From Ilumatobacteraceae bacterium (lineage in GTDB: Bacteria; Actinomycetota; Acidimicrobiia; Acidimicrobiales; Ilumatobacteraceae): 64,000 nt of DNA. The translations under genes and the position numbers were made by a program. Every line of letters begins with the position of its first letter. The first letter of the stretch is position 1. Below are positions 39,959-49,942 of this stretch, one piece after another. Location: the NCBI GenBank assembly GCA_965279405.1, contig OZ257157.1:3568865-3632864 (forward strand), in the 5' to 3' direction. The notes below the pieces were generated by a model. It made no database searches and was not told the DNA's origin. It worked only from the letters and a program-made list of their open reading frames with translations.

Positions 39959-41170
39959 TCAGGTCAGGGCGGTGCTCAGGGTGTCCACGATCCGATCGAT
40001 GTGCTCGTCGCTGATCACGAGCGGCGGGCAGAACGTCAACGAATCGGTGTTGATCGCACGCGTGATCACGCCGAGCTCGAGCATCCGGTCACGCACGGCC
40101 ACCGCGTTCTGATCGGTGCGCAGCCCGGCAGCCCACATCGCGCCCTCGCCCCGGGCGTGGTCGATGACACCGTCGGACGCGAGCGCCTGGAGACCGGCAG
40201 CCAGCCGCTCGCCGACGTGCGTGGCCCGCTCCACCAGACCCTCACGGCGGATGATCGCGAGGTTGGCCAAGCCTGCCGCGCAGGCCGCCGGATGGCCGCT
40301 GTAGGTGAACCCGTGGCGCAGGAAGAAGTCGGGATTCGACTCGAGCGCGGCACGCGGCGCCGGGCCGACGAACACGCCGCCGAGCGGCTGGTAGCCGGAC
40401 GTGACCGCCTTCGCGAAGGTGACGAGGTCGGGGCGGACATCGAAGTGATGAGCAGCGAACCATGAGCCGAGACGGCCGTAACCGGTGATCACCTCGTCGA
40501 AGATCAGGTAGGCGCCGTGCTGGTCGCAAAGTCGGCGCAGTCCGGCGAGGTAGCCCTCGGTCGGCGGGAAGATGCCGGCCGCACCCTGCACGGGCTCGGT
40601 GATCACCGCGGCCACCTCGTTGCCGCGCTCGGCCATCAACGAGGCGATGGCTTCGAGATCATCGGCGGAAACCTGCACGACGTCGCCGACGAACGGCCCG
40701 AAGTGCTCGCGGTTCGGGGCGATGCCCTGTGCGCTCGTGCCGCCGTACGCGACACCGTGGTAGCCACGCGTGCGGGAGATGATCAGCGTTCGTTGCGGCT
40801 GCCCGGCTTGCACGTGGGCGACTCGGGCGAGCTTCATCGCCGTGTCGACCGACTCGCTGCCCGACGAGCAGAAGAAGACGCGCGAGTCCTCCATCGGTGC
40901 GATCGTGTGCAGCTCGGCGGCCAGTTGTTCGGCGGGCTCGTTGGTGAACGGGTCGAAGCATGAGTACGCGGCGAGGGTGCTCAGCTGACCGGCGACGGCG
41001 TCGGCGATCTCGGTGCGGCCGTGTCCGACAGCGCAGTACCAGAGGCTGGCCATGCCGTCGACCAGCTCCTGCCCATCGGCAGTGAAGACGAGTGCGCCCT
41101 CGCCACGCACGATGGGGATGAAGGTCTCACGGGTGGGCTTGGCGAAGGGGTGGAGGAACGCACTGGGCAT
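39959..41170 (-). CDS. Class III (omega/acetylornithine-type) PLP aminotransferase
   Basis: This is the C-terminal 403 aa of ORF 39959..42526, starting at ATG 41170. CSSGSESVDTAMK, IFDEVITGYGRLG, and TFAKAVTSGYQPLG with the PLP Lys. Confidence 0.88.
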   Translation of the reverse strand: MPSAFLHPFAKPTRETFIPIVRGEGALVFTADGQELVDGMASLWYCAVGHGRTEIADAVAGQLSTLAAYSCFDPFTNEPAEQLAAELHTIAPMEDSRVFFCSSGSESVDTAMKLARVAHVQAGQPQRTLIISRTRGYHGVAYGGTSAQGIAPNREHFGPFVGDVVQVSADDLEAIASLMAERGNEVAAVITEPVQGAAGIFPPTEGYLAGLRRLCDQHGAYLIFDEVITGYGRLGSWFAAHHFDVRPDLVTFAKAVTSGYQPLGGVFVGPAPRAALESNPDFFLRHGFTYSGHPAACAAGLANLAIIRREGLVERATHVGERLAAGLQALASDGVIDHARGEGAMWAAGLRTDQNAVAVRDRMLELGVITRAINTDSLTFCPPLVISDEHIDRIVDTLSTALT

Positions 41171-41260
41171 GGCGGCGACCGTAGCCGTGGGCCTCGTGCG
41201 TACACTCGCCAGATCGGCACAGACCCAGCGCGGAACGTTCCTGCCAACCAGCCGGCGGCG

Positions 41261-42547
41261 ATGCAGTTCGTCGCCCGGTTCGGTCGCGGGCTGGGACGGT
41301 TGGCGTCCGGCAACGCGACGTCGTCGACGCTCACTCGGTTGCGCTGGTTCCAGGCGTTGTCGGTGGTGCTCGGCCTCGTCCTCGCGCTCGCCGGTGGGTA
41401 CGGCGTCGGGCGTCGGTCGAGCTCGCTGGCCGAGGCGCGGACCGCCGCGCAGCAGCTGATCGCCGTACAGGACGTGCGCGTCGCAGTCGTTCGTGCCGAC
41501 GCCATCGCCAGCTCGTCGTACCTCGTCGGCGGCGAGGAGGACCCCGCCCAGCGCACCGCGTACCTGGCCGAGGTCGACCGCGCCAGCAACGGGATGGTCG
41601 CCGTCGCCAACCGCGTCGGGGGCGCCGACGCCGCGCTGCTGGCCGAAGGCAGCCGCTTGCTCAGCTCGTACGTCGGCCTGGTCGAGCAGGCCCGTGCCAA
41701 CAACCGCCAGGGCTTCCAGGTGGGAGCGGCGTACCAACGGCAGGCCAACGCGATCGTCGTCAACGATCAGATCGGCGACGACGGCACCGCGGTGCCGAAC
41801 ATCGTGGCCACACTCCGCGCCGTCGAGGACTCGCAGCGACGTCAGGTCAACGATCGTCTCGCCGAAGCGCACCGCGCCGGTGCCTGGCTGCAGCTCGTCG
41901 GATGGGTGCTGTTCGGCGTGCTGGCGCTCGGTGCGGTGTGGATGGCCCTTCGCTTCCGGCGGTGGGTCAACGTGCCGGTCGGTCTCGCGGCGCTCGGCGT
42001 GCTGGTGCTGCTCGTCGCCGGCGGCACGGCGCAGAGCGCCGCGGTCAACGACGCCGACACCGCGGTCGACGGGCCACTGCTCCAGGCGGACATCACCGCG
42101 CAAGCGCGTGCCGCTGGCTTCGACGCTCGATCGCAGGAAGCGCTGACGTTGATCAACCGCGGCAGCGGCCAGGCCAACGAGGCGAAGTGGAAGGTCTCGG
42201 CGGCGATCGTCGACGACATCGTCGGTCGATGTGCCTGCGATCCCGATCGCTCGTTCGCCGCCTACGAGGCCGGTCACGACGAGCTGCGCGCGCTGGACGA
42301 CGGCGGCGACTGGGACACCGCAGTCGCGACCAGCTTGGGGCAGGCCGGCACGGTGGCCACCTCGTTCGAGTCGTTCGCCGACGCCACTGCGTCGGTCGTC
42401 GACGACGCATCGCGTCGTGCCGACCAGCAGCTGGTCGATGCGCGGTCGTCGCTCGCGTCCTTGCGGTTGTTCGTCATCGTCGTCGGTCTGCTGGCGGCGG
42501 TGCTCGCCGCGGTCGGCTTCGGGCAACGGATCCGGGAGTACCGATGA
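41261..42547 (+). CDS. glnX: GlnX-like integral membrane protein (4 TM, two extracytoplasmic helical domains)
   Basis: ORF 41021..42547, starting at M81 (41261). The four hydrophobic helices are ALSVVLGLVLALAGGYGV, WLQLVGWVLFGVLALGAVWMAL, VGLAALGVLVLLVAGG and LFVIVVGLLAAVLAAVGF. They are separated by Ala/Gln-rich helical segments. The call rests on topology and position upstream of glnH-pknG. Confidence 0.6.
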   Translation: MQFVARFGRGLGRLASGNATSSTLTRLRWFQALSVVLGLVLALAGGYGVGRRSSSLAEARTAAQQLIAVQDVRVAVVRADAIASSSYLVGGEEDPAQRTAYLAEVDRASNGMVAVANRVGGADAALLAEGSRLLSSYVGLVEQARANNRQGFQVGAAYQRQANAIVVNDQIGDDGTAVPNIVATLRAVEDSQRRQVNDRLAEAHRAGAWLQLVGWVLFGVLALGAVWMALRFRRWVNVPVGLAALGVLVLLVAGGTAQSAAVNDADTAVDGPLLQADITAQARAAGFDARSQEALTLINRGSGQANEAKWKVSAAIVDDIVGRCACDPDRSFAAYEAGHDELRALDDGGDWDTAVATSLGQAGTVATSFESFADATASVVDDASRRADQQLVDARSSLASLRLFVIVVGLLAAVLAAVGFGQRIREYR

Positions 42548-43563
42548 GGCGCCGATCGATCTTCAGCGCAGCACTCGCTGCGGCTGCGATCGTCGTCGTC
42601 ACCGCGTGCTCCGGCGACACGCGACTGCCGGACGCGGTCGAGGTGAGCGTGCCCGTCGAGACGACGCCATCCGTGCCGGCTCCACCGCAGTGCACCGCCG
42701 ATGAAGCGGCGCTGGATCCGACGCGTTCCTACGAGCCGCTCGACGAGCTGCCGGATCCCGGCGACATGCCTTCGGGCTCGACGATGGCGCGCATCCTGCA
42801 GCGCGGCCGGCTCATCGTCGGCGTGTCCGGCGACACCCGCCTGTTCGGTGCCCGCGACTCGAAGACGGGGAACATCGAGGGGTTCGACGTCGACATGCTC
42901 AAGCAGGTCGCGCTGGCGATCTTCGGCGGTGACGAAGCCGACATCAACGACCACATCGAGTACAAGGTGATCACCTACGCACAGCGCCTGCCGGCGCTGG
43001 AGGCGGGGCCGGACAACGGTGGCGTCGACATCGTCGCCCACACGATGACCATCAATTGCAACCGCTGGCTGCGCATCGGCTTCTCGTCCGAGTACTACCA
43101 CGCCGGTCAGAAGGTGCTCGTGAAGGCGGGCTCCGGCTACGAGTCGGTTGGTGACCTCGTTGCGGCGAAGGCGCGCGTGTGCGCACCGCTCGGCAGCACC
43201 AACATCGACGAGATCAACAAGCCCGAGTACGCCGGCATCACCGTGATCGGCAAGCCCGACATCACCGACTGCCTCGTCGCCATGCAGCAAGGTCAGGCCG
43301 ATGCGACCACAGGTGATGACACCGTGCTCGCCGGCTTCGCTGCGCAGGATCCGAACGTCCTGGTCGTCGGTGGTGCCTTCACCGGCGAGCCGTACGGCCT
43401 CGGCATCGGCAAGGACAACGTCGACTTCGTCCGCTTCGTCAACGCCGTGCTCGAGCAGGTCCGCGAGGACGGACGTTGGGAGCGCATCTACGACACGTGG
43501 CTGACGTCCAGCCTCGGTCCGTCGAACGGTCCGCCGACGGCGCTGTACGGGCGGGAGCCGTGA
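42544..43563 (+). CDS. glnH: GlnH-like amino-acid-binding lipoprotein (SBP family 3)
   Basis: ORF 41902..43563. ATG 42544 overlaps the glnX stop as ATGA. Lipobox MRRRSIFSAALAAAAIVVVTAC. GRLIVGVSGDTRLFG...GFDVDMLKQVA...DIVAHTMTI...GEPYGLGIGKDN. Confidence 0.8.
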   Translation: MRRRSIFSAALAAAAIVVVTACSGDTRLPDAVEVSVPVETTPSVPAPPQCTADEAALDPTRSYEPLDELPDPGDMPSGSTMARILQRGRLIVGVSGDTRLFGARDSKTGNIEGFDVDMLKQVALAIFGGDEADINDHIEYKVITYAQRLPALEAGPDNGGVDIVAHTMTINCNRWLRIGFSSEYYHAGQKVLVKAGSGYESVGDLVAAKARVCAPLGSTNIDEINKPEYAGITVIGKPDITDCLVAMQQGQADATTGDDTVLAGFAAQDPNVLVVGGAFTGEPYGLGIGKDNVDFVRFVNAVLEQVREDGRWERIYDTWLTSSLGPSNGPPTALYGREP

Positions 43564-44642
43564 TGACGGCGAGCGTTCCCACGATCGACGAGGTTCGTCA
43601 CTGGATCACGCAGTGGCGCGAGTGGCTCAGCGTGCGCACGGACGCGCTGCTGTCGCTCGACGAACGGGCGCGCGACCTCGGCAACGACGGCGATCGCGCT
43701 GATGTCGCTGCAGCGTTCGTCGTGCACAAGGCCCTGTCGAACCGGATCATCGACATCGAGACGGCGGCTGGCCGCGGCGATCGCGCCGCCGCCGGCCAGC
43801 GTGCCGGCTCAGCACTCGTCGACGAGCTCGGTGGTGCCGTTGCCGCGTCGCCCGACGAAGCGGCCACCCTGCTCGACGCGATCGTCGACCGCGTCTCCAC
43901 ACGTCTCGACGGGATCGAGCGGACTGCGGCCGCCGAGATCCGCGCCGCGCAGGCGGTGCAGGTGGAGCTCGACGCCGCCGAGCGGTTGAGCACGACCCTC
44001 GGCATGCAGGCCAACCGGCTCGCGGCGATCCGCACGCAGCTGGCGACGAGGCGCGACCTCGGCTCGCTCGCGGCCGAAGCGGCCACGGTTCGCGCCGAGC
44101 TCGAAGCGGCCAGTCGCCGACGCAACGAGTTGCTCACTGCGATCGAGCAGGCACCCGAGCGGTTGGCGGGCATGGCGAACGACGAGGCATCGCTGCGCGA
44201 GCTCGCAGCGCGATGCCGCGAGAAGATCAAGCAGGCGCCGCCGTTGGCGGTGCCCAACGTCGGCGCGATCCAGCTCGATCACGACCGAGCTGCACTCGAG
44301 GCGATGCCGTGGTCGCCGGCACGTGCGATCGTCGAGCCGCTGCTGCAGCGCATCGACCGCCTGCAGGCAGCGCTGGCGGAAGCCCGGCGTCGTTTCCAGG
44401 CGCCGCTCGACGAACGCGACGAGCTGCGTGGCCTGCTGCAGGCGTTCCGTGACAAGGCGGGTGGCAGCGGCAAGGCCGAGGCCGCCGACGTGGACAGCGC
44501 CTACCGCCAGGCGCAGGACGTGCTGTGGAACGCGCCGTGCGACCTCGACGCCGGTCGACGGCTGACCCACGAGTTCATCGCGCTGGTCAACCGCGTCGTC
44601 GGAACGGGTACGGCTGCACCGGGGAAGGGGCAGGCATCGTGA
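43563..44642 (+). CDS. Hypothetical Ala/Arg/Leu/Glu-rich helical (coiled-coil-like) protein
   Basis: ORF 43476..44642. ATG 43563 overlaps the glnH TGA. The stop overlaps the pknG GTG. It reads MTASVPTIDEVRHWITQWREWLSV... with long heptad-like stretches. I recognise no catalytic motif. Confidence 0.55.
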   Translation: MTASVPTIDEVRHWITQWREWLSVRTDALLSLDERARDLGNDGDRADVAAAFVVHKALSNRIIDIETAAGRGDRAAAGQRAGSALVDELGGAVAASPDEAATLLDAIVDRVSTRLDGIERTAAAEIRAAQAVQVELDAAERLSTTLGMQANRLAAIRTQLATRRDLGSLAAEAATVRAELEAASRRRNELLTAIEQAPERLAGMANDEASLRELAARCREKIKQAPPLAVPNVGAIQLDHDRAALEAMPWSPARAIVEPLLQRIDRLQAALAEARRRFQAPLDERDELRGLLQAFRDKAGGSGKAEAADVDSAYRQAQDVLWNAPCDLDAGRRLTHEFIALVNRVVGTGTAAPGKGQAS

Positions 44643-46888
44643 AGTGCACGCAACCCGGATGCACGGGCAACATCGTCGACGGCTACTGCGACGTCTGCGG
44701 CATGGCCGCCGCGTCGGGGGCCGTCACGCCATCGCCGACGTCGGCCGTGAGGCCGACTCCCAACCCGGGTACGGCCGGAACGTCGCCGCCTTCGATCGGC
44801 TTCACCGGATCCACTCGCCTCGGACTCGTGCCGATCGGCTCGGCGCGCAACAGCGGCAGCACGCGGCCCACCCGTCGGCTCGGCGGCGCGACGCAGGCGA
44901 CACGGCTCGGTGCCGGGCTCACCCAGGTGCCGTCGATCCCGATCGTCGATCCGCGCCAAGCGCTGATGAACCCGGCGGTCGTCGCCGAGGACAAGCGCTT
45001 CTGCTCGGTGTGCGAGACACCGATCGGTCGCACCCGCGACGGCCAGCCCGGCCGCACCAAGGGCTTCTGTCCGAAGTGCCGCACGCCGTTCGACTTCGAG
45101 CCGAAGCTCGCTCCCGGCGCGCTGGTCGGCGGTCAGTACGAGGTGGTCGGCTGCCTGGCGCACGGCGGCATGGGCTGGATCTACCTCGCCCGCGACCGCA
45201 ACGTCAACGATCGCTGGGTGGTGCTCAAGGGCCTCCTGAACACCGGCGATCCCGACGCGTCGCGTGCCGCCGTTGCCGAGAAGCAGTACCTCGCCGAGGT
45301 GGAGCACCCGCTGATCGTCGAGATCTACAACTTCGTCACCGCGCCCGACGGTGCGTCGTACATCGTCATGGAGTACGTCGGCGGGCGCTCGCTGAACAAC
45401 CTCCTGAAAGACCGGATGGCGGCCACCTCCGGACGCTTCTCGCCGATCCCCGTCGATCAGGCGATCGCCTACATGGTCGAGATCCTGCCGGCGTTCTCCT
45501 ACCTGCACGGCCTCGGGTTGCTGTACTGCGACTTCAAGCCGGCCAACCTCATCCAGGTCGGTGACGGCCTGAAGCTGATCGACCTCGGCGGCGTACGGCG
45601 CGTCGACGACGACCAGTCGCCGATCTACGGCACCGTCGGCTTCCAGGCGCCCGAGGTGCCGAGCGAAGGCACCACGGTGGCGAGCGACGTGTACACGATC
45701 GCGCGCACGCTGGCCGTGCTGGTGTTCGAGTTCAAGGGCTACCAGAACCGCTTCGTCGACTCGCTGCCCGGCCCGGACGACGTGCCGTTGTTCGGCGAGC
45801 ACGACTCGCTCTACCGCTGGTTGCTGAAGGGCACCGCGCCGCGTCCGGAGGACCGGTTCCAGACCGCCGACGAGATGCGCGACCAGTTGCTCGGCGTGCT
45901 GCGCGAGGTCACCTCGCTGACCGCGGCCGGAGGTGGTCGCCGCGGCGTCACTCGCAGCACGCCGTCGCGGCTGTTCGAGACGCCGGCCGTCGCCGGAGAT
46001 CAGCTCTCGTGGTCGGACCTGCCCGGCGTCATCGTCGACGAATCCGATGCGATGGCATCCTGGCTCTCGTCGGTCACCGCCGACGACGCAGCGGTGCGGC
46101 TCGCCGCACTGCGCGGTGCGCCGGAGGAGACCGTGGGTGTGCTGCTGGCCACGGGCATGGCAGCTCTGGCGACGGGTGACGCGGAGCAGGCCGAGGCCGC
46201 GTCGCAGCGCATCCTCGCCCGCGATGCGTGGGAGTGGCGCGGCGCGTGGCTGCACGGGCTGATCGCGTTGGCGACCGACCAGCACACCGAAGCGGTGTCT
46301 GCCTTCAACGCCGTCTACGGGCAGCTGCCCGGCGAGCTCGCCCCGAAGCTGGCACTGGCGCGGTCGTGCGAGCTCGGCGACGAGCCGGCAGTGGCCGAGC
46401 GCATGTACGGACTCTGCGCGCGAACGGATGCCGCGTACGTCGCGCCCGCGCAGTTCGGGCTGGCCCGTCTTGCCGCGGCCGGCACTCGCCGCGACGATGC
46501 GCTTGCCGCGCTCGACCGCATCCCTGCCACGAGCCGTGCGTACGGCGATGCGCGCCGGCAGCGAGCGGTGCTGCTGGCGTCGGCGCTCGATCCGCAGCAC
46601 GCCCTCGACGACCTCAGCGCTGCTGCCGCCGAGCTCGATCGCGCGGGCATGGAACCACTCGCTCGCGCCGAGCTGCGCGTGCAGATCCTGTCCTCGTCGC
46701 TGCAGTGGGTGCTGCGCAACGGTCCGTACGCCGGGCTCAGCATCGGCGGCGTCCCCGCCGTCGAAGGACCGTTGCGGTCGGGGCTCGAGAGCGCCTATCG
46801 CGAGGCGGCTCGACTGACCGCTGGCCACGCCGAGCGCATCGCGCTCGTCGATCAGGCCAACGCGGTGAGGCCGCGCACGTTCGTCTGA
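44639..46888 (+). CDS. pknG: PknG-type Ser/Thr protein kinase (N-terminal zinc ribbon, Thr/Pro-rich linker, rubredoxin-like CxxC pair, kinase domain, TPR)
   Basis: ORF 44525..46888, with GTG 44639 overlapping the upstream stop. FCSVCETPIGRTRDGQPGRTKGFCPKCRTPFDF lies directly before GQYEVVGCLAHGGMGWIYLARDRNVNDRWVVLKGL. Kinase motifs: LLYCDFKPANL, LIDLGG and GTVGFQAPE. The C-terminus is made of TPR-like helices. Confidence 0.88.
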   Translation: MKCTQPGCTGNIVDGYCDVCGMAAASGAVTPSPTSAVRPTPNPGTAGTSPPSIGFTGSTRLGLVPIGSARNSGSTRPTRRLGGATQATRLGAGLTQVPSIPIVDPRQALMNPAVVAEDKRFCSVCETPIGRTRDGQPGRTKGFCPKCRTPFDFEPKLAPGALVGGQYEVVGCLAHGGMGWIYLARDRNVNDRWVVLKGLLNTGDPDASRAAVAEKQYLAEVEHPLIVEIYNFVTAPDGASYIVMEYVGGRSLNNLLKDRMAATSGRFSPIPVDQAIAYMVEILPAFSYLHGLGLLYCDFKPANLIQVGDGLKLIDLGGVRRVDDDQSPIYGTVGFQAPEVPSEGTTVASDVYTIARTLAVLVFEFKGYQNRFVDSLPGPDDVPLFGEHDSLYRWLLKGTAPRPEDRFQTADEMRDQLLGVLREVTSLTAAGGGRRGVTRSTPSRLFETPAVAGDQLSWSDLPGVIVDESDAMASWLSSVTADDAAVRLAALRGAPEETVGVLLATGMAALATGDAEQAEAASQRILARDAWEWRGAWLHGLIALATDQHTEAVSAFNAVYGQLPGELAPKLALARSCELGDEPAVAERMYGLCARTDAAYVAPAQFGLARLAAAGTRRDDALAALDRIPATSRAYGDARRQRAVLLASALDPQHALDDLSAAAAELDRAGMEPLARAELRVQILSSSLQWVLRNGPYAGLSIGGVPAVEGPLRSGLESAYREAARLTAGHAERIALVDQANAVRPRTFV

Positions 46889-47940
46889 TGTCGTCTGCAC
46901 CGGAAGTCAACGACACCACGTGCCCGTCGTGCGGCGCGTCGATCACCGCCGCCGACTCTTTCTGTGAAGCGTGCGGAGCCACGCTCGGCCCACCCGGCGC
47001 GACGCCTCCACCGCCACCCGTCGCGGCGTCGGCTCCAGGCAACGGCACTGGCGGCGGGCGTGCCTGTCGAGCGTGTGGAGGTCGGATCCTCGACGACGGG
47101 TTCTGCGGTTCGTGCGGTCAGAAGGCGCCGACCGAGCGCGACCACTGGGACGAGCAGCCGGCGCCGTGGGTGGCCGGCGTGTGCGACCGCGGCATCGTCC
47201 ACGCCCGCAACGAGGACGCGATGGCGCTCGCCGCCACTGCCGACCGCGCGTTCGCAGTGCTGGTCGTGTGCGACGGCGTGACCTCGGCGCCGGACAGCGA
47301 TCGAGCCAGCCTTGCTGCGTCGCGTCGTGCGTGTGCCGACCTCGTCGGCGCGGCCCGGCCCGAAGGTGGCGAAGCGGTGCGCGTGGCCCACTGGGCCGCT
47401 GCGGTGCAGCACAGCGCGGTGGTCGCCAACGAGGTCGCCGTCGGCGTGGCGCACGCGCTGGGCGATCCACCGGAACCGCCGTCGAGCACGTTCGTCGTCG
47501 GGGTGCTCGCCGATGACCTCCTCACCGTTGGCTGGTGCGGCGACTCACGGGCCTACTGGTTGCCGGATGCAGGGGAGGGCGTGCAGCTGACCACCGATCA
47601 CTCGCTCGGCACGGAGATGATCCGCGCCGGACGGTCGCGTGCGGAAGCAGAGGCCGACCCGACGTGCCACACCATCACCCGCTGGCTCGGTGCCGACTCG
47701 GTCTCACCAGACGCCGAGGTCGTCTCACGACGCCTCGATGCGCCCGGCTGGGTGCTCGTCTGCAGCGATGGCATGTGGAACGACTTCTCCGAACCCGCTG
47801 CGCTGCGCGGCCTGATCGACGCGGTGGGGGCCGGCGACCCGCTCGTCATCGCTGATGCGATGGTGCGCGCCGCCAACGATCGTGGCGGGCACGACAACAT
47901 CACCGCGGCCCTGGCTCGCTTCGAGCCATCGCTACGCTGA
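46888..47940 (+). CDS. PP2C-family Ser/Thr phosphatase with two N-terminal zinc ribbons
   Basis: ORF 46228..47940, with ATG 46888 overlapping the pknG TGA. CPSCGASITAADSFCEACG and CRACGGRILDDGFCGSCG. PP2C motifs: HARNEDA, VVCDGVTS, VCSDGMWN and GGHDNITA. Confidence 0.85.
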   Translation: MSSAPEVNDTTCPSCGASITAADSFCEACGATLGPPGATPPPPPVAASAPGNGTGGGRACRACGGRILDDGFCGSCGQKAPTERDHWDEQPAPWVAGVCDRGIVHARNEDAMALAATADRAFAVLVVCDGVTSAPDSDRASLAASRRACADLVGAARPEGGEAVRVAHWAAAVQHSAVVANEVAVGVAHALGDPPEPPSSTFVVGVLADDLLTVGWCGDSRAYWLPDAGEGVQLTTDHSLGTEMIRAGRSRAEAEADPTCHTITRWLGADSVSPDAEVVSRRLDAPGWVLVCSDGMWNDFSEPAALRGLIDAVGAGDPLVIADAMVRAANDRGGHDNITAALARFEPSLR

Positions 47941-47975
47941 CCCAACGACGAGCCGAACAGACAGAGGAGGTCGAC

Positions 47976-49259
47976 TTGGCCGAGTTCACGGCGTCCGTGT
48001 TCCAGAACGAGTACCTGTCGGAGAACGCCACCGACGTGCACGCGGTCGTCTCCGTCGCCTGCACCGGTGCCGGCCTCGCCGGCCAGGCGGGAACGGGCGA
48101 CGCTGCCGAGATCCTGATCGTCGACACGTCCGGCTCGATGGACATGCCGCCGACCAAGATCGCCAACGCTCGCCGCGCGGCGAAGGTGGCGATCGACGAG
48201 ATCGTCGACGGCACGTGGTTCGCCGTGCTCAGCGGGCACTCGGTCGCGCAGATGGTGTACCCGACGCATCCCGGCCTGGCGAAGATGAGCGCCGTCACCC
48301 GACGCGAGGCGTCGCACATGGTCGAGCGCCTGCGCAGCGGCGGGAGCACCGCGATCGGGGCGTGGATCTCGGCCGCCACCGAGCTGTTCCAGCAGGCACC
48401 GACGTCGCAGCACCACGCCATCTTGCTGACCGACGGTCGCATCGAGGGCGAACCTCCCGAAGCGCTGCCCGCGGCACTGGCCGCGGCTCGTGGCGTGTTC
48501 CAGTGCGACTGCCGTGGCGTGGGTGAGGACTGGGAGGTCGACGAGCTGCGCTCGATCGCCGACGCACTGCTCGGCACCGTCGACATCATCGCCGACCCGG
48601 CCGACATGGAGGCCGACTTCGAGACGATGATGCGCACCGCGATGCAACGCGGCGTGGCCGAAGCGCGCCTGCGGATCTGGGCGCCACAGGGCAGCGAGGT
48701 GCTGTTCGTGCGCCAGGTCGCACCCGCAGTCGAAGACCTCAGCTCCAAGGCGCAGCAGACCGCACCGCTCGTGCGTGAGTACTCGACCGGGGCGTGGAGC
48801 GACGAGAGCCGCGACTACCACGTCGCCGTGCGCGTGCCCGTGGCTCCCGTCGGCAGTGAACGGTTGGCGGCCCGCGTCGAAGTCGTCGTCAACGACGAGG
48901 TGCAGGCGAAGGCGCTGATCCGTGGCGTGTGGAGCACGGACGCCAACCTGACGACCCGCATCGACCCCGCAGTGGCCCACTACACCGGGCAGGTGCAGCT
49001 GGCCGACGTCATCCAACGCGGCCTCGCGGCGAAGGCCGCCGGCGACGAGCGCACCGCGACGGTCCTGCTCGGCGAGGCGGCGAAGATCGCTCACGAGGGC
49101 GGCAACGAGGACACCACCCGGCTGCTGTCGAAGGTCGTCGACGTGGTCGATGCCGAGGCGGGCACGGTGCGGTTGAAGGCCCAGGTGCAGCGCAGCGACG
49201 AGATGGCGCTGGATACGCGCAGCACGAAGACGACGCGGATCAGGCCGACCGCGCCATGA
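47976..49259 (+). CDS. von Willebrand factor type A (vWA) domain protein
   Basis: TTG start at 47976, with GAGGAGG 6 nt upstream. MIDAS motif ILIVDTSGSMD. GGSTAIGAW and AILLTDGR. The C-terminal about 200 aa are uncharacterised. Confidence 0.85.
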   Translation: MAEFTASVFQNEYLSENATDVHAVVSVACTGAGLAGQAGTGDAAEILIVDTSGSMDMPPTKIANARRAAKVAIDEIVDGTWFAVLSGHSVAQMVYPTHPGLAKMSAVTRREASHMVERLRSGGSTAIGAWISAATELFQQAPTSQHHAILLTDGRIEGEPPEALPAALAAARGVFQCDCRGVGEDWEVDELRSIADALLGTVDIIADPADMEADFETMMRTAMQRGVAEARLRIWAPQGSEVLFVRQVAPAVEDLSSKAQQTAPLVREYSTGAWSDESRDYHVAVRVPVAPVGSERLAARVEVVVNDEVQAKALIRGVWSTDANLTTRIDPAVAHYTGQVQLADVIQRGLAAKAAGDERTATVLLGEAAKIAHEGGNEDTTRLLSKVVDVVDAEAGTVRLKAQVQRSDEMALDTRSTKTTRIRPTAP

Positions 49260-49942
49260 CCGTCCTGTGCCCGAACGGACACGACTCCACTGACCCGGAG
49301 TGGTGCGACACCTGTGGCGCTCGCATCGGCGAACCGGCGCCTGCGCCGGCCACGCCTGCAGCACCGGCAGCCGTGACGCAGCCGCCGGCGAGCTCGGCGC
49401 CCTCGGTGCCCTGCCCGAACTGCAGCACCCCGAACGCAGCCGACAACCTGTTCTGCGAGGAGTGCGGCTACGACTTCACGACCGGCGAGGCGCCACCTGT
49501 GCCGGCGCCGGTCGAGCCGGTTGCCGAGCCGGCCCCGGTCGGCAGCGCGGCGTGGGTGGTCGTGGTCGAGATCGATCCGGCGTGGTACGCGCTGAAGGGC
49601 ACGCTGGCCGATCAGCCGTGCCCGAAGCCGTCCACCTTCACCGTCGCCGTCAGTGGCCGCACCGCGCTGATCGGGCGAACGAGCCAGTCGCGTGGCGTTC
49701 GTCCCGAGGTGGCGCTGGACAACGACACGGGCGTGTCCCGACGGCACGCGCAGCTGGTCCGCGACGACGACCAGCTCAGCGTGGTCGACCTGTCATCGAC
49801 CAACGGCACCTACGTCGTGGTCGCCGGCTCGACGCCGAGCGAGGACACCGATGCCATCACCCCGGGCGTCCCGGTGGTGCTGCGCGATGGCGATGCCGTC
49901 TACGTCGGCGCCTGGACCCGCCTCACCGCCCGCGCCGGCTGA
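49256..49942 (+). CDS. FHA domain protein with two N-terminal zinc ribbons
   Basis: ORF 48929..49942, with ATG 49256 overlapping the vWA stop as ATGA. CPNGHDSTDPEWCDTCG and CPNCSTPNAADNLFCEECG. FHA motifs: LIGRTSQ, GVSRRHAQL and DLSSTNGTYV. Confidence 0.85.
   Translation: MTVLCPNGHDSTDPEWCDTCGARIGEPAPAPATPAAPAAVTQPPASSAPSVPCPNCSTPNAADNLFCEECGYDFTTGEAPPVPAPVEPVAEPAPVGSAAWVVVVEIDPAWYALKGTLADQPCPKPSTFTVAVSGRTALIGRTSQSRGVRPEVALDNDTGVSRRHAQLVRDDDQLSVVDLSSTNGTYVVVAGSTPSEDTDAITPGVPVVLRDGDAVYVGAWTRLTARAG

Follow-up and report, generated by a model that had tools for sequence, protein, structure and literature searches.

We examined a 64,000-nucleotide stretch of an Ilumatobacteraceae genome (assembly GCA_965279405.1, contig OZ257157.1, positions 3,568,865 to 3,632,864 of the forward strand; hereafter the window, with positions counted from its first letter), in which a PknG-family Ser/Thr kinase, a PP2C phosphatase and an FHA-domain protein are encoded in one operon and carry, between them, five short Cys-rich segments resembling zinc ribbons. 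These ribbons are real, translated N-terminal modules on variable linkers, which confirms the observation from which the analysis started, and by sequence they fall into two classes that recur with their host genes in orthologous operons across the phylum. Such patterns, together with the likeness of the neighbouring vWA and FHA proteins to archaeal ArnB and ArnA, suggest that the ribbons may be independently folding, zinc-binding protein-protein tethers on flexible Pro/Ala/Thr-rich linkers in an extended, ancestral GlnX-GlnH-PknG-GarA pathway, a reading that we judge to have an even chance of being right.

All five ribbons are encoded on the forward strand, and all five Cys-rich strings listed in the initial annotation were found verbatim. 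The first, K1 (CTQPGCTGNIVDGYCDVCG; 44645-44701), spans residues 3-21 of PknG and is, as had been claimed, additional to the canonical rubredoxin-like domain of the kinase (44894..45109; Pfam PknG_rubred, residues 86-157). The phosphatase bears P1 (CPSCGASITAADSFCEACG; 46921-46977; sequence match and Pfam) and P2 (CRACGGRILDDGFCGSCG; 47065-47118; sequence match and orthologue profiles), while the FHA protein bears F1 (CPNGHDSTDPEWCDTCG; 49268-49318; sequence match and alignment), with three Cys and one His as putative ligands, and F2 (CPNCSTPNAADNLFCEECG; 49412-49468), the closest of the five to the ArnA zinc finger. The spacing pattern proposed for the ribbons holds overall, except that F1 has six, not 7-10, residues between its His and Trp. 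In each protein, the first ribbon begins 2-11 residues past a start codon that overlaps the preceding stop, ahead of a variable linker of low model confidence, and orthologues have an ATG one or few codons ahead of the first Cys. Because the orthologue ATG lies just ahead of that Cys, the ribbons are translated, and the worry that these segments might lie upstream of the true starts is removed.

Over 60 orthologous operons, ranging from Acidimicrobiia to Streptomyces, conserve each ribbon residue for residue. K1 follows C[TA]QPGCxGxIxDGYCDVCG in Acidimicrobiia and CQRPGCEGSYEDxGGGELYCDTCG in Streptomyces, and the orthologue signatures of the other four are CPxCx7DxFCExCG (P1), CxxCGGxVxDDGFCxxCG (P2), CPNGHxSxDPEWCDTCG (F1), and CP[HN]CxxxNxxDxLFCExCGYDF (F2). 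When 23 FHA orthologues were aligned, the invariant columns of the N-terminus gathered in the two ribbons (C5, P6, G8, H9, S11, C17, D18, C20, and G21 in F1; C53, P54, C56, F66, C67, E68, C70, and G71 in F2), with linkers that differ in length and sequence, and in the AlphaFold model the ribbons and the FHA domain are predicted with confidence and joined by low-confidence linkers, like beads on a string. The same alignment reveals a conserved YDFTTGQxP tail directly after F2 (here YDFTTGEAP; 49469..49495, forward strand), in which D73 and F74 are invariant and T76, G77, Q78, and P80 reach 90% conservation or more, and its Thr pair is a possible phospho-acceptor, analogous to the ETTS motif of GarA. 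As a separate observation, K1 is doubled in tandem in loci L102-L105, L110, L095, L098, L044, and L039 (families f76, f55, f122 genus g371, and f20, and one Streptomyces), and two class B ribbons on one kinase suggest that valency matters.

Genome-wide, the motif of the initial annotation, searched as a regular expression in the six-frame translation of the 5.26-Mb genome, occurs at six sites, five in the operon and the sixth on an unlinked GarA orthologue. The Pfam model Zn_Ribbon_1 (PF13240) likewise passes its cut-off at six sites, P1 and F2 among them; the phosphatase and the FHA protein both pass DZR (PF12773), and P2 is detected by Pfam solely as the second half of a DZR match. K1 and F1 go unreported by both models, even at E<=10, and K1 is recovered at 9e-13 by an orthologue-only profile. 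Two early attempts were uninformative: leave-one-protein-out hidden Markov models (HMMs) built from the five window ribbons had too little power and failed to recover the ribbons left out, and an HMM trained on all five matches only itself, such that profiles from orthologues were used instead.

With profiles built from orthologues only, sequence divides the ribbons into two classes, A (P1, F2), of the generic Zn_Ribbon_1/DZR type, and B (K1, P2, F1), and the claim that one motif heads all three proteins gives way to two classes with different evolutionary behaviour. In the genome, the best non-self match of P1 is F2 and vice versa, and that of the P2 profile is K1, while the K1 and F1 profiles found no match beyond themselves. 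Profile-profile comparison (hhalign) gave 98% for P1-F2 and 97% for both P1 and F2 against the GarA ribbon within class A; 96.5% for K1-P2, 93% for P2-F1, and 92% for K1-F1 within class B; and 18% (K1-F2) and 47% (F1-F2) across the classes, and it is through this comparison alone that class B relates to class A. The PknG rubredoxin, run as a control, scored 92-95% against P1, P2, and the GarA ribbon (P1-Rdx 95%, G1-Rdx 94%). Because this control made hhalign probabilities non-discriminating, a column-permutation null and whole-genome and PDB searches were added, and every tested ribbon pair outscored all 60 nulls, which held the Cys columns fixed and shuffled the rest, i.e., the ribbons are related beyond their Cys spacing. 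Judged by sequence, ribbons and rubredoxin belong to one broad ribbon superfamily, not a private family.

Pooled profiles separate the classes further. Class B comprises exactly one ribbon on each of PknG, PP2C, and the FHA protein: K1, P2, and F1 are the sole sites that its pooled profile finds in the genome, and over 94 related loci it returned 192 matches in these three genes and 2 elsewhere, both strays being frameshifted fragments at PknG 5' ends. These counts, and the five of six genomic motif sites that lie in this operon, uphold co-occurrence beyond chance. The pooled class A profile additionally matches GarA and three other proteins in the genome, one an adenylate-cyclase/ATPase protein and the others a pair of membrane proteins. 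Among these other class A proteins, the first (C1:3103625-3108382, reverse strand) joins a ribbon to a region that by eye resembles a nucleotide cyclase and a large ATPase/regulator, and the membrane proteins are adjacent (C1:1955400-1956254 and 1956178-1959579, both on the reverse strand), with the class A ribbon on a cytoplasmic N-terminus.

The substrate of the kinase pathway bears a class A ribbon as well. The sixth motif site (C1:4410989), outside the window, heads a 161-aa protein (C1:4410974-4411456) whose best PDB matches are GarA and OdhI structures (E 8e-30 to 3e-26), and because these are its best solved relatives, it is the GarA orthologue. Its N-terminal ribbon reads CNQCGHRNPPESSFCSSCG, and it shows HTITL where mycobacteria show ETTS. 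Among nine Streptomyces, eight have a class A ribbon on GarA by alignment coverage, followed by the ETTS motif, and a ribbon (LPVCNRCG...) was also found on GarA of the ninth (G282). The GarA ribbon is further present in families f20, f80, f96, f122, f76, and f55, and GarA is without it in 12 Mycobacteriaceae genomes (4 genera) and one f58 genome. For a ribbon-bearing GarA, we found no description in the searchable literature.

Covariation of ribbons and genes was followed through two PknG_TPR surveys of 800 distinct genomes, from which 60 further loci were fetched, with 83 complete PknG loci scored in all. A complete module with every ribbon is seen in Acidimicrobiia, Streptomyces, and six further families. 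All Mycobacteriaceae loci, by comparison, consist of glnX-glnH-pknG alone and lack the helical, PP2C, vWA, and FHA genes as well as any ribbon, and K1 is missing in 16/16 loci without these four genes (Mycobacteriaceae and two paralogue types). The gene for an uncharacterised helical protein stands directly 5' of the kinase gene in 67 of the 94 loci and is missing from every Mycobacteriaceae locus among them (iterated HMM). Two f122 genera (g354 and g330) have the module with a K1 that keeps CPEPDCEGVIEDGYC but has lost its fourth Cys (YCTITG); P2 and F1 are gone there, and P1, F2, and the GarA ribbon are retained. This coordinated decay of class B only argues most strongly for the classes as functional units.

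Paralogous PknG cassettes form a side group in the same sample (L053, L054, L122, L115, L117), with a helical protein, a kinase whose ribbon is K1-like (CNRPDCGxGxIDxQGFCPxC), and a vWA protein, and without PP2C; in L053 and L122, a class A ribbon match falls near the C-terminal end of the vWA reading frame.

A possible partner for class A is suggested by the vWA protein, which lies between the phosphatase and the FHA protein and itself has no ribbon. It is an orthologue of PDB 4FX5, has an intact MIDAS (metal-ion-dependent adhesion site) motif (DTSGS, of the form DxSxS, with D50, S52, and S54 invariant in 26 sequences), and is modelled by AlphaFold at a pLDDT of 92.8. In a Foldseek search with this model, ranks 2-4 are ArnB (8S05_A/B) and ArnE (5A8J), with E 1.3e-21 and a TM score of 0.75 over the whole chain for ArnB 8S05_A and E 1.9e-19 for ArnE 5A8J, and the protein is, on its model, ArnB-like in fold. 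Its Ser/Thr-rich C-terminal tail (DEMALDTRSTKTTR; 49197..49238, forward strand) has invariant S416 and T419 and nearly invariant T417, D408, E409, L412, and R421 in the same 26 sequences, and is a candidate phospho-acceptor and FHA-docking site, comparable to the phosphorylated C-terminus of ArnB. The FHA protein profile, for its part, has ArnA (8S05_C, 5A8I_A) as its best PDB matches, ahead of GarA. Among 177,635 PDB sequences, the class A profile ranks DZANK1 first and the ArnA zinc finger (CNLCGYENDDDALFCIKCGA) at ranks 2-3 (E 0.0065), the latter being its best prokaryotic match, and the class B profile found no meaningful relative.

The Arn proteins of Sulfolobus acidocaldarius (8S05, 5A8I, 5A8J) offer a worked precedent. 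The ArnA zinc finger uses its second hairpin (the DALFC region, D31-Q41) to dock on the beta-sandwich and C-terminal helical domain of ArnB to give a loose complex, as seen in a 2026 co-crystal, after which ArnC phosphorylates the ArnB C-terminal domain and the ArnA FHA domain is recruited there (PMC12852372); PP2A reverses this phospho-switch (PMC7472852). Shared with the present operon are neighbouring genes for an FHA protein with a zinc ribbon and a vWA protein without one, the composition of the latter (beta-sandwich, vWA, C-terminal helical bundle) and its Ser/Thr-rich C-terminus, a ribbon of F2 type including the DALFCxxCG hairpin that in ArnA forms the ArnB interface, a nutrient link, and a dedicated kinase and phosphatase. 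There are also differences: the operon is bacterial and uses a PknG-type kinase and PP2C rather than ArnC and PP2A, its FHA protein has a second ribbon of another class, kinase, phosphatase, and GarA are also ribboned, and a helical protein and GlnX/GlnH belong to the unit, while identity between the vWA protein and ArnB is ~14% and contacts are known only for Arn. The Sec23/Sec24 core is a more distant likeness, with Sec23/24 chains among the Foldseek matches of the vWA model and PDB 8S05 titled as an archaeal orthologue of that core; the domain set is the same (zinc finger, vWA trunk, beta-sandwich, helical), with the zinc finger here in trans, whereas Sec23/24, a coat protein of eukaryotes, has every domain on one chain and no kinase/phosphatase/FHA logic.

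If the ribbons are tethers, class A (P1, F2, and the GarA ribbon) would most likely, by analogy with Arn, park eraser, reader, and substrate on the ArnB-like vWA hub; in the archaeal model, an ArnA-type ribbon clips the FHA protein to the beta-sandwich/helical-bundle face of the ArnB-type vWA protein before phosphorylation. Class B (K1, P2, F1) would most likely be a second shared address, read by the class B ribbons on each other or by the co-inherited helical protein, such that writer, eraser, and reader could act within one complex. Phosphorylation by PknG of conserved Thr/Ser sites may then turn loose ribbon contacts into tight FHA-phosphothreonine contacts, which PP2C would reset, the candidate sites being the C-terminal tail of the vWA protein, the TT pair that follows F2, and the linker of the kinase. 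A bolder version of the scheme, which we think rather doubtful as a whole, holds that the ancestral actinomycete PknG pathway is an ArnA/ArnB-type hub with a two-letter ribbon address code, in which class B assembles PknG, PP2C, and the FHA reader, the class A ribbons of PP2C, reader, and GarA compete for one vWA site so that loose parking sets which (de)phosphorylation follows, and Mycobacteriaceae, from which most published PknG work comes, discarded hub and ribbons, which would make the textbook account of PknG-GarA a derived, minimal one.

Several observations weigh against ribbons acting as tethers in such a hub. The vWA orthologue is absent genome-wide from six of eight f80 genomes (G512, G714, G727, G446, G762, G580), and the vWA-less loci L085, L087, L123, and L124 (genomes G512, G446, G714, and G727) have lost no ribbon from any gene they contain, with all five present in L085, L123, and L124 and K1, P1, and P2 in L087, which is truncated by its contig; the GarA ribbon is also kept in both vWA-less genomes checked (G512 and G762). 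Because these loci retain their ribbons, the vWA protein is not an obligatory partner, and the suggestion that it is the sole common one is ruled out. K1 occurs without any accessory gene in two loci (L090 and L116, only these), P2 is lost alone in three (L027, L029, L101), and the GarA ribbon is lost alone in one genome (G701). The covariation rests on few independent events, namely a large loss in Mycobacteriaceae, another in f122, and paralogues whose origin is unclear. The match between class A and the ArnA zinc finger is weak for a 20-residue motif, the PDB profile search gave class B no precedent in structure or function, and the rubredoxin is as ribbon-like as the ribbons themselves, so that similarity of this kind alone defines no functional set. 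Of the initial proposal that a shared module joins writer, eraser, and reader, co-occurrence far beyond chance and the precedent of the ArnA zinc finger on ArnB therefore stand, and the single motif and the single vWA partner do not.

Among other explanations, the best placed, although unlikely, casts the ribbons as redox or metal sensors which make the pathway responsive to oxidative stress or to zinc/iron availability. The model is the PknG rubredoxin domain, in which oxidation or alkylation of a Cys4 metal centre alters kinase activity, and Cys4 or Cys3His centres on kinase, phosphatase, reader, and substrate would act likewise. All ligand Cys/His residues are invariant, the PknG rubredoxin is profile-related to the ribbons at the values given above, and work cited in PMC6069109 and PMC8546545 reports that PknG activity is modulated by the rubredoxin metal site. 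However, long, flexible linkers set the ribbons far from the catalytic domains, which makes direct allostery unlikely, the class-specific residues that are not ligands (DGYCD, PNGH, DALFCE, YDF) argue for recognition surfaces, and the closest solved relative, the ArnA zinc finger, is a docking module (PMC12852372). Somewhat less likely again is that the ribbons anchor their proteins at the cytoplasmic face of GlnX or on anionic lipids, concentrating the cascade beneath GlnH/GlnX. GlnX and GlnH are always in the cluster, the two membrane proteins that also carry class A ribbons hold them on the cytoplasmic side, and ribbons survive where the vWA protein is missing, but Mycobacteriaceae retain GlnX-GlnH-PknG signalling without ribbons, the mycobacterial PknG-GlnX link relies on the TPR domain (PMC6069109), and GarA targets soluble metabolic enzymes.

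Binding of RNA or DNA, by which the ribbons would couple the phospho-switch to gene expression or translation, appears quite improbable, and nucleic acid as the ligand, one of the options initially raised, found no support in this analysis. Many PDB-matched zinc ribbons belong to ribosomal or RNA-binding proteins, ArnA is, by the title of PMC10470591, a global DNA-damage-response repressor in S. islandicus, and nucleic acid binding has been speculated for the ribbon of the TerY-P kinase (PMC10542128). The ArnAB study, nevertheless, saw no DNA binding, with the zinc finger occupied by ArnB (PMC12852372), the ribbons here are acidic to neutral rather than basic (DGYCD, DPEWCD, ADNLFCEE), and the known output of PknG is metabolic, via GarA. 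Least credible is that the ribbons are generic, common in Actinomycetota, acquired separately and without shared function, so that their co-occurrence is incidental: Pfam does assign them to broad families, leave-one-out profiles from the window recover nothing of each other, and unrelated proteins of the genome bear class A ribbons, but only ~6 sites genome-wide reach the Pfam cut-off, class B is restricted to three genes in the genome and in the 94 loci, each ribbon is conserved across classes of the phylum, and ribbon losses are coordinated.

The tether reading can also be compared with the systems in which these domains have been described. In mycobacteria and corynebacteria, PknG's N-terminal extension recruits GarA for substrate docking (PMC8546545), and K1 sits on this extension, at the position of the known docking segment, which favours the tether reading. 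The GlnX-GlnH-PknG-GarA/OdhI systems of Mycobacterium and Corynebacterium share with the operon the PknG domains, upstream glnH and a GlnX-like gene, and a GarA orthologue (E 1e-29 to GarA structures); two papers on them (PMC8546545, PMC6069109) describe only a three-gene operon and mention no ribbon. The studied systems have three genes, no helical, PP2C, vWA, or FHA protein and no ribbon on PknG or GarA, whereas here and in most other sampled families there is a seven-gene operon with six ribbons in all, including that of GarA.

A second comparison is with TerY-P triads and the actinobacterial kinase-zinc-ribbon/PP2C/vWA theme (Kaur et al. 2020, PMC7159879), which likewise have an adjacent kinase, PP2C, and stand-alone vWA protein and a kinase fused to a zinc ribbon. 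The defining adjacency of vWA, PP2C, and Ser/Thr kinase is found here, in the order pknG-PP2C-vWA. Unlike the operon, TerY-P kinases bear their ribbon at the C-terminus (PMC10542128), with no PknG TPR/rubredoxin and no GlnH/GlnX, and no ribbons are reported on a phosphatase or FHA partner. They occur in tellurite-resistance, defence, or GTPase contexts, none of which was seen here; a Pfam scan of the seven operon genes and the downstream gene gave no ter/TelA or defence family, and this operon is highly conserved, syntenic, and housekeeping-like. We did not equate the operon with the 'FHA-VWA' cluster of the pamtide paper (PMC10787088), as the Streptomyces gene 3' of fha resembles, by eye, a truncated haemoglobin and not a methyltransferase. 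No paper was found in the searchable literature that describes ribbons on PknG, phosphatase, FHA partner, and GarA together.

The operon itself comprises seven genes on the forward strand (41021-49942; GlnX-like, glnH, helical, pknG, PP2C, vWA, FHA) in a window of ~0.70 G+C content. Its first gene encodes a GlnX-like multi-pass membrane sensor (41021..42547, with the start at 41021 or internal), which lies upstream of glnH, gave no family in a Pfam scan, and scores 43-70 bits (phmmer) against the open reading frame 5' of glnH in mycobacterial glnX-glnH-pknG loci. It is followed by a GlnH-like lipoprotein solute-binding protein (42544..43563; Pfam SBP_bac_3, E 1.8e-21), conserved within the operon and with a lipobox-like N-terminus, and by the 359-aa helical protein (43563..44642), for which the Pfam scan also gave no family. 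The kinase (44639..46888) runs in the order K1, Thr/Pro-rich linker, rubredoxin, kinase, TPR (Pfam PknG_TPR 7e-54, Pkinase 1e-26, PknG_rubred 5e-24), an architecture that, with glnH and glnX upstream and synteny with mycobacterial loci, is that of the PknG pathway. Downstream lie the PP2C phosphatase with its two N-terminal ribbons (46888..47940; PP2C_2 6e-12, DZR 33.0 bits), the ArnB-type vWA protein (47976..49259; VWA_3 and VWA_3_C), and the ArnA-like FHA protein with two N-terminal ribbons (49256..49942; FHA 7e-11, DZR 28.6 bits), the DZR cut-off being 27.3 bits. Translational coupling is evident at the GTG of pknG (44639), which overlaps the helical stop (GTGA), the ATG of PP2C (46888), which overlaps the pknG stop (TGATG), and the ATG of the FHA gene (49256), which overlaps the vWA stop (ATGA), while the TTG start of vWA (47976) is preceded by a GAGGAGG ribosome-binding site.

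A search with the vWA protein returned 34 loci, including uncultured Actinomycetes, one Catenulispora (L032), and an incomplete contig from Nocardioides (L028), and the seven-gene order is kept in nearly all of them. In two loci (L026:3734-7939 and L034:4462-7455), one open frame covers PknG and PP2C, either as a natural fusion or through a frameshift in a long-read metagenome-assembled genome (MAG); similar long-read MAGs (L031, L033) are frameshift-fragmented, and the fusions were set aside as evidence. Within Ilumatobacteraceae, 12 other species genomes in the phylum sample (three of 4.8 Mb) gave no PknG_TPR match and many MAGs do carry the operon, so that the 12 misses reflect either patchy presence in the family or the first-look filter of the search.

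PknG-GarA/OdhI is a well-studied Ser/Thr-kinase pathway that controls the 2-oxoglutarate node, with consequences for mycobacterial physiology and industrial glutamate production, and the mechanistic work on PknG all comes from Mycobacterium and Corynebacterium. The data presented here point to a larger system in most other Actinomycetota, Streptomyces among them, comprising a dedicated phosphatase, a vWA hub resembling ArnB, a reader resembling ArnA, and a helical protein. Six conserved ribbons are spread over its kinase, phosphatase, reader, and substrate, three of them in the newly defined class B, for which there is no structural precedent. This provides a concrete hypothesis for specificity and reversibility in a bacterial Ser/Thr phospho-switch, and links a bacterial pathway to the archaeal Arn switch and, more distantly, to the Sec23/24 domain set. 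By comparison, the much-studied tuberculosis version of the pathway looks stripped-down.

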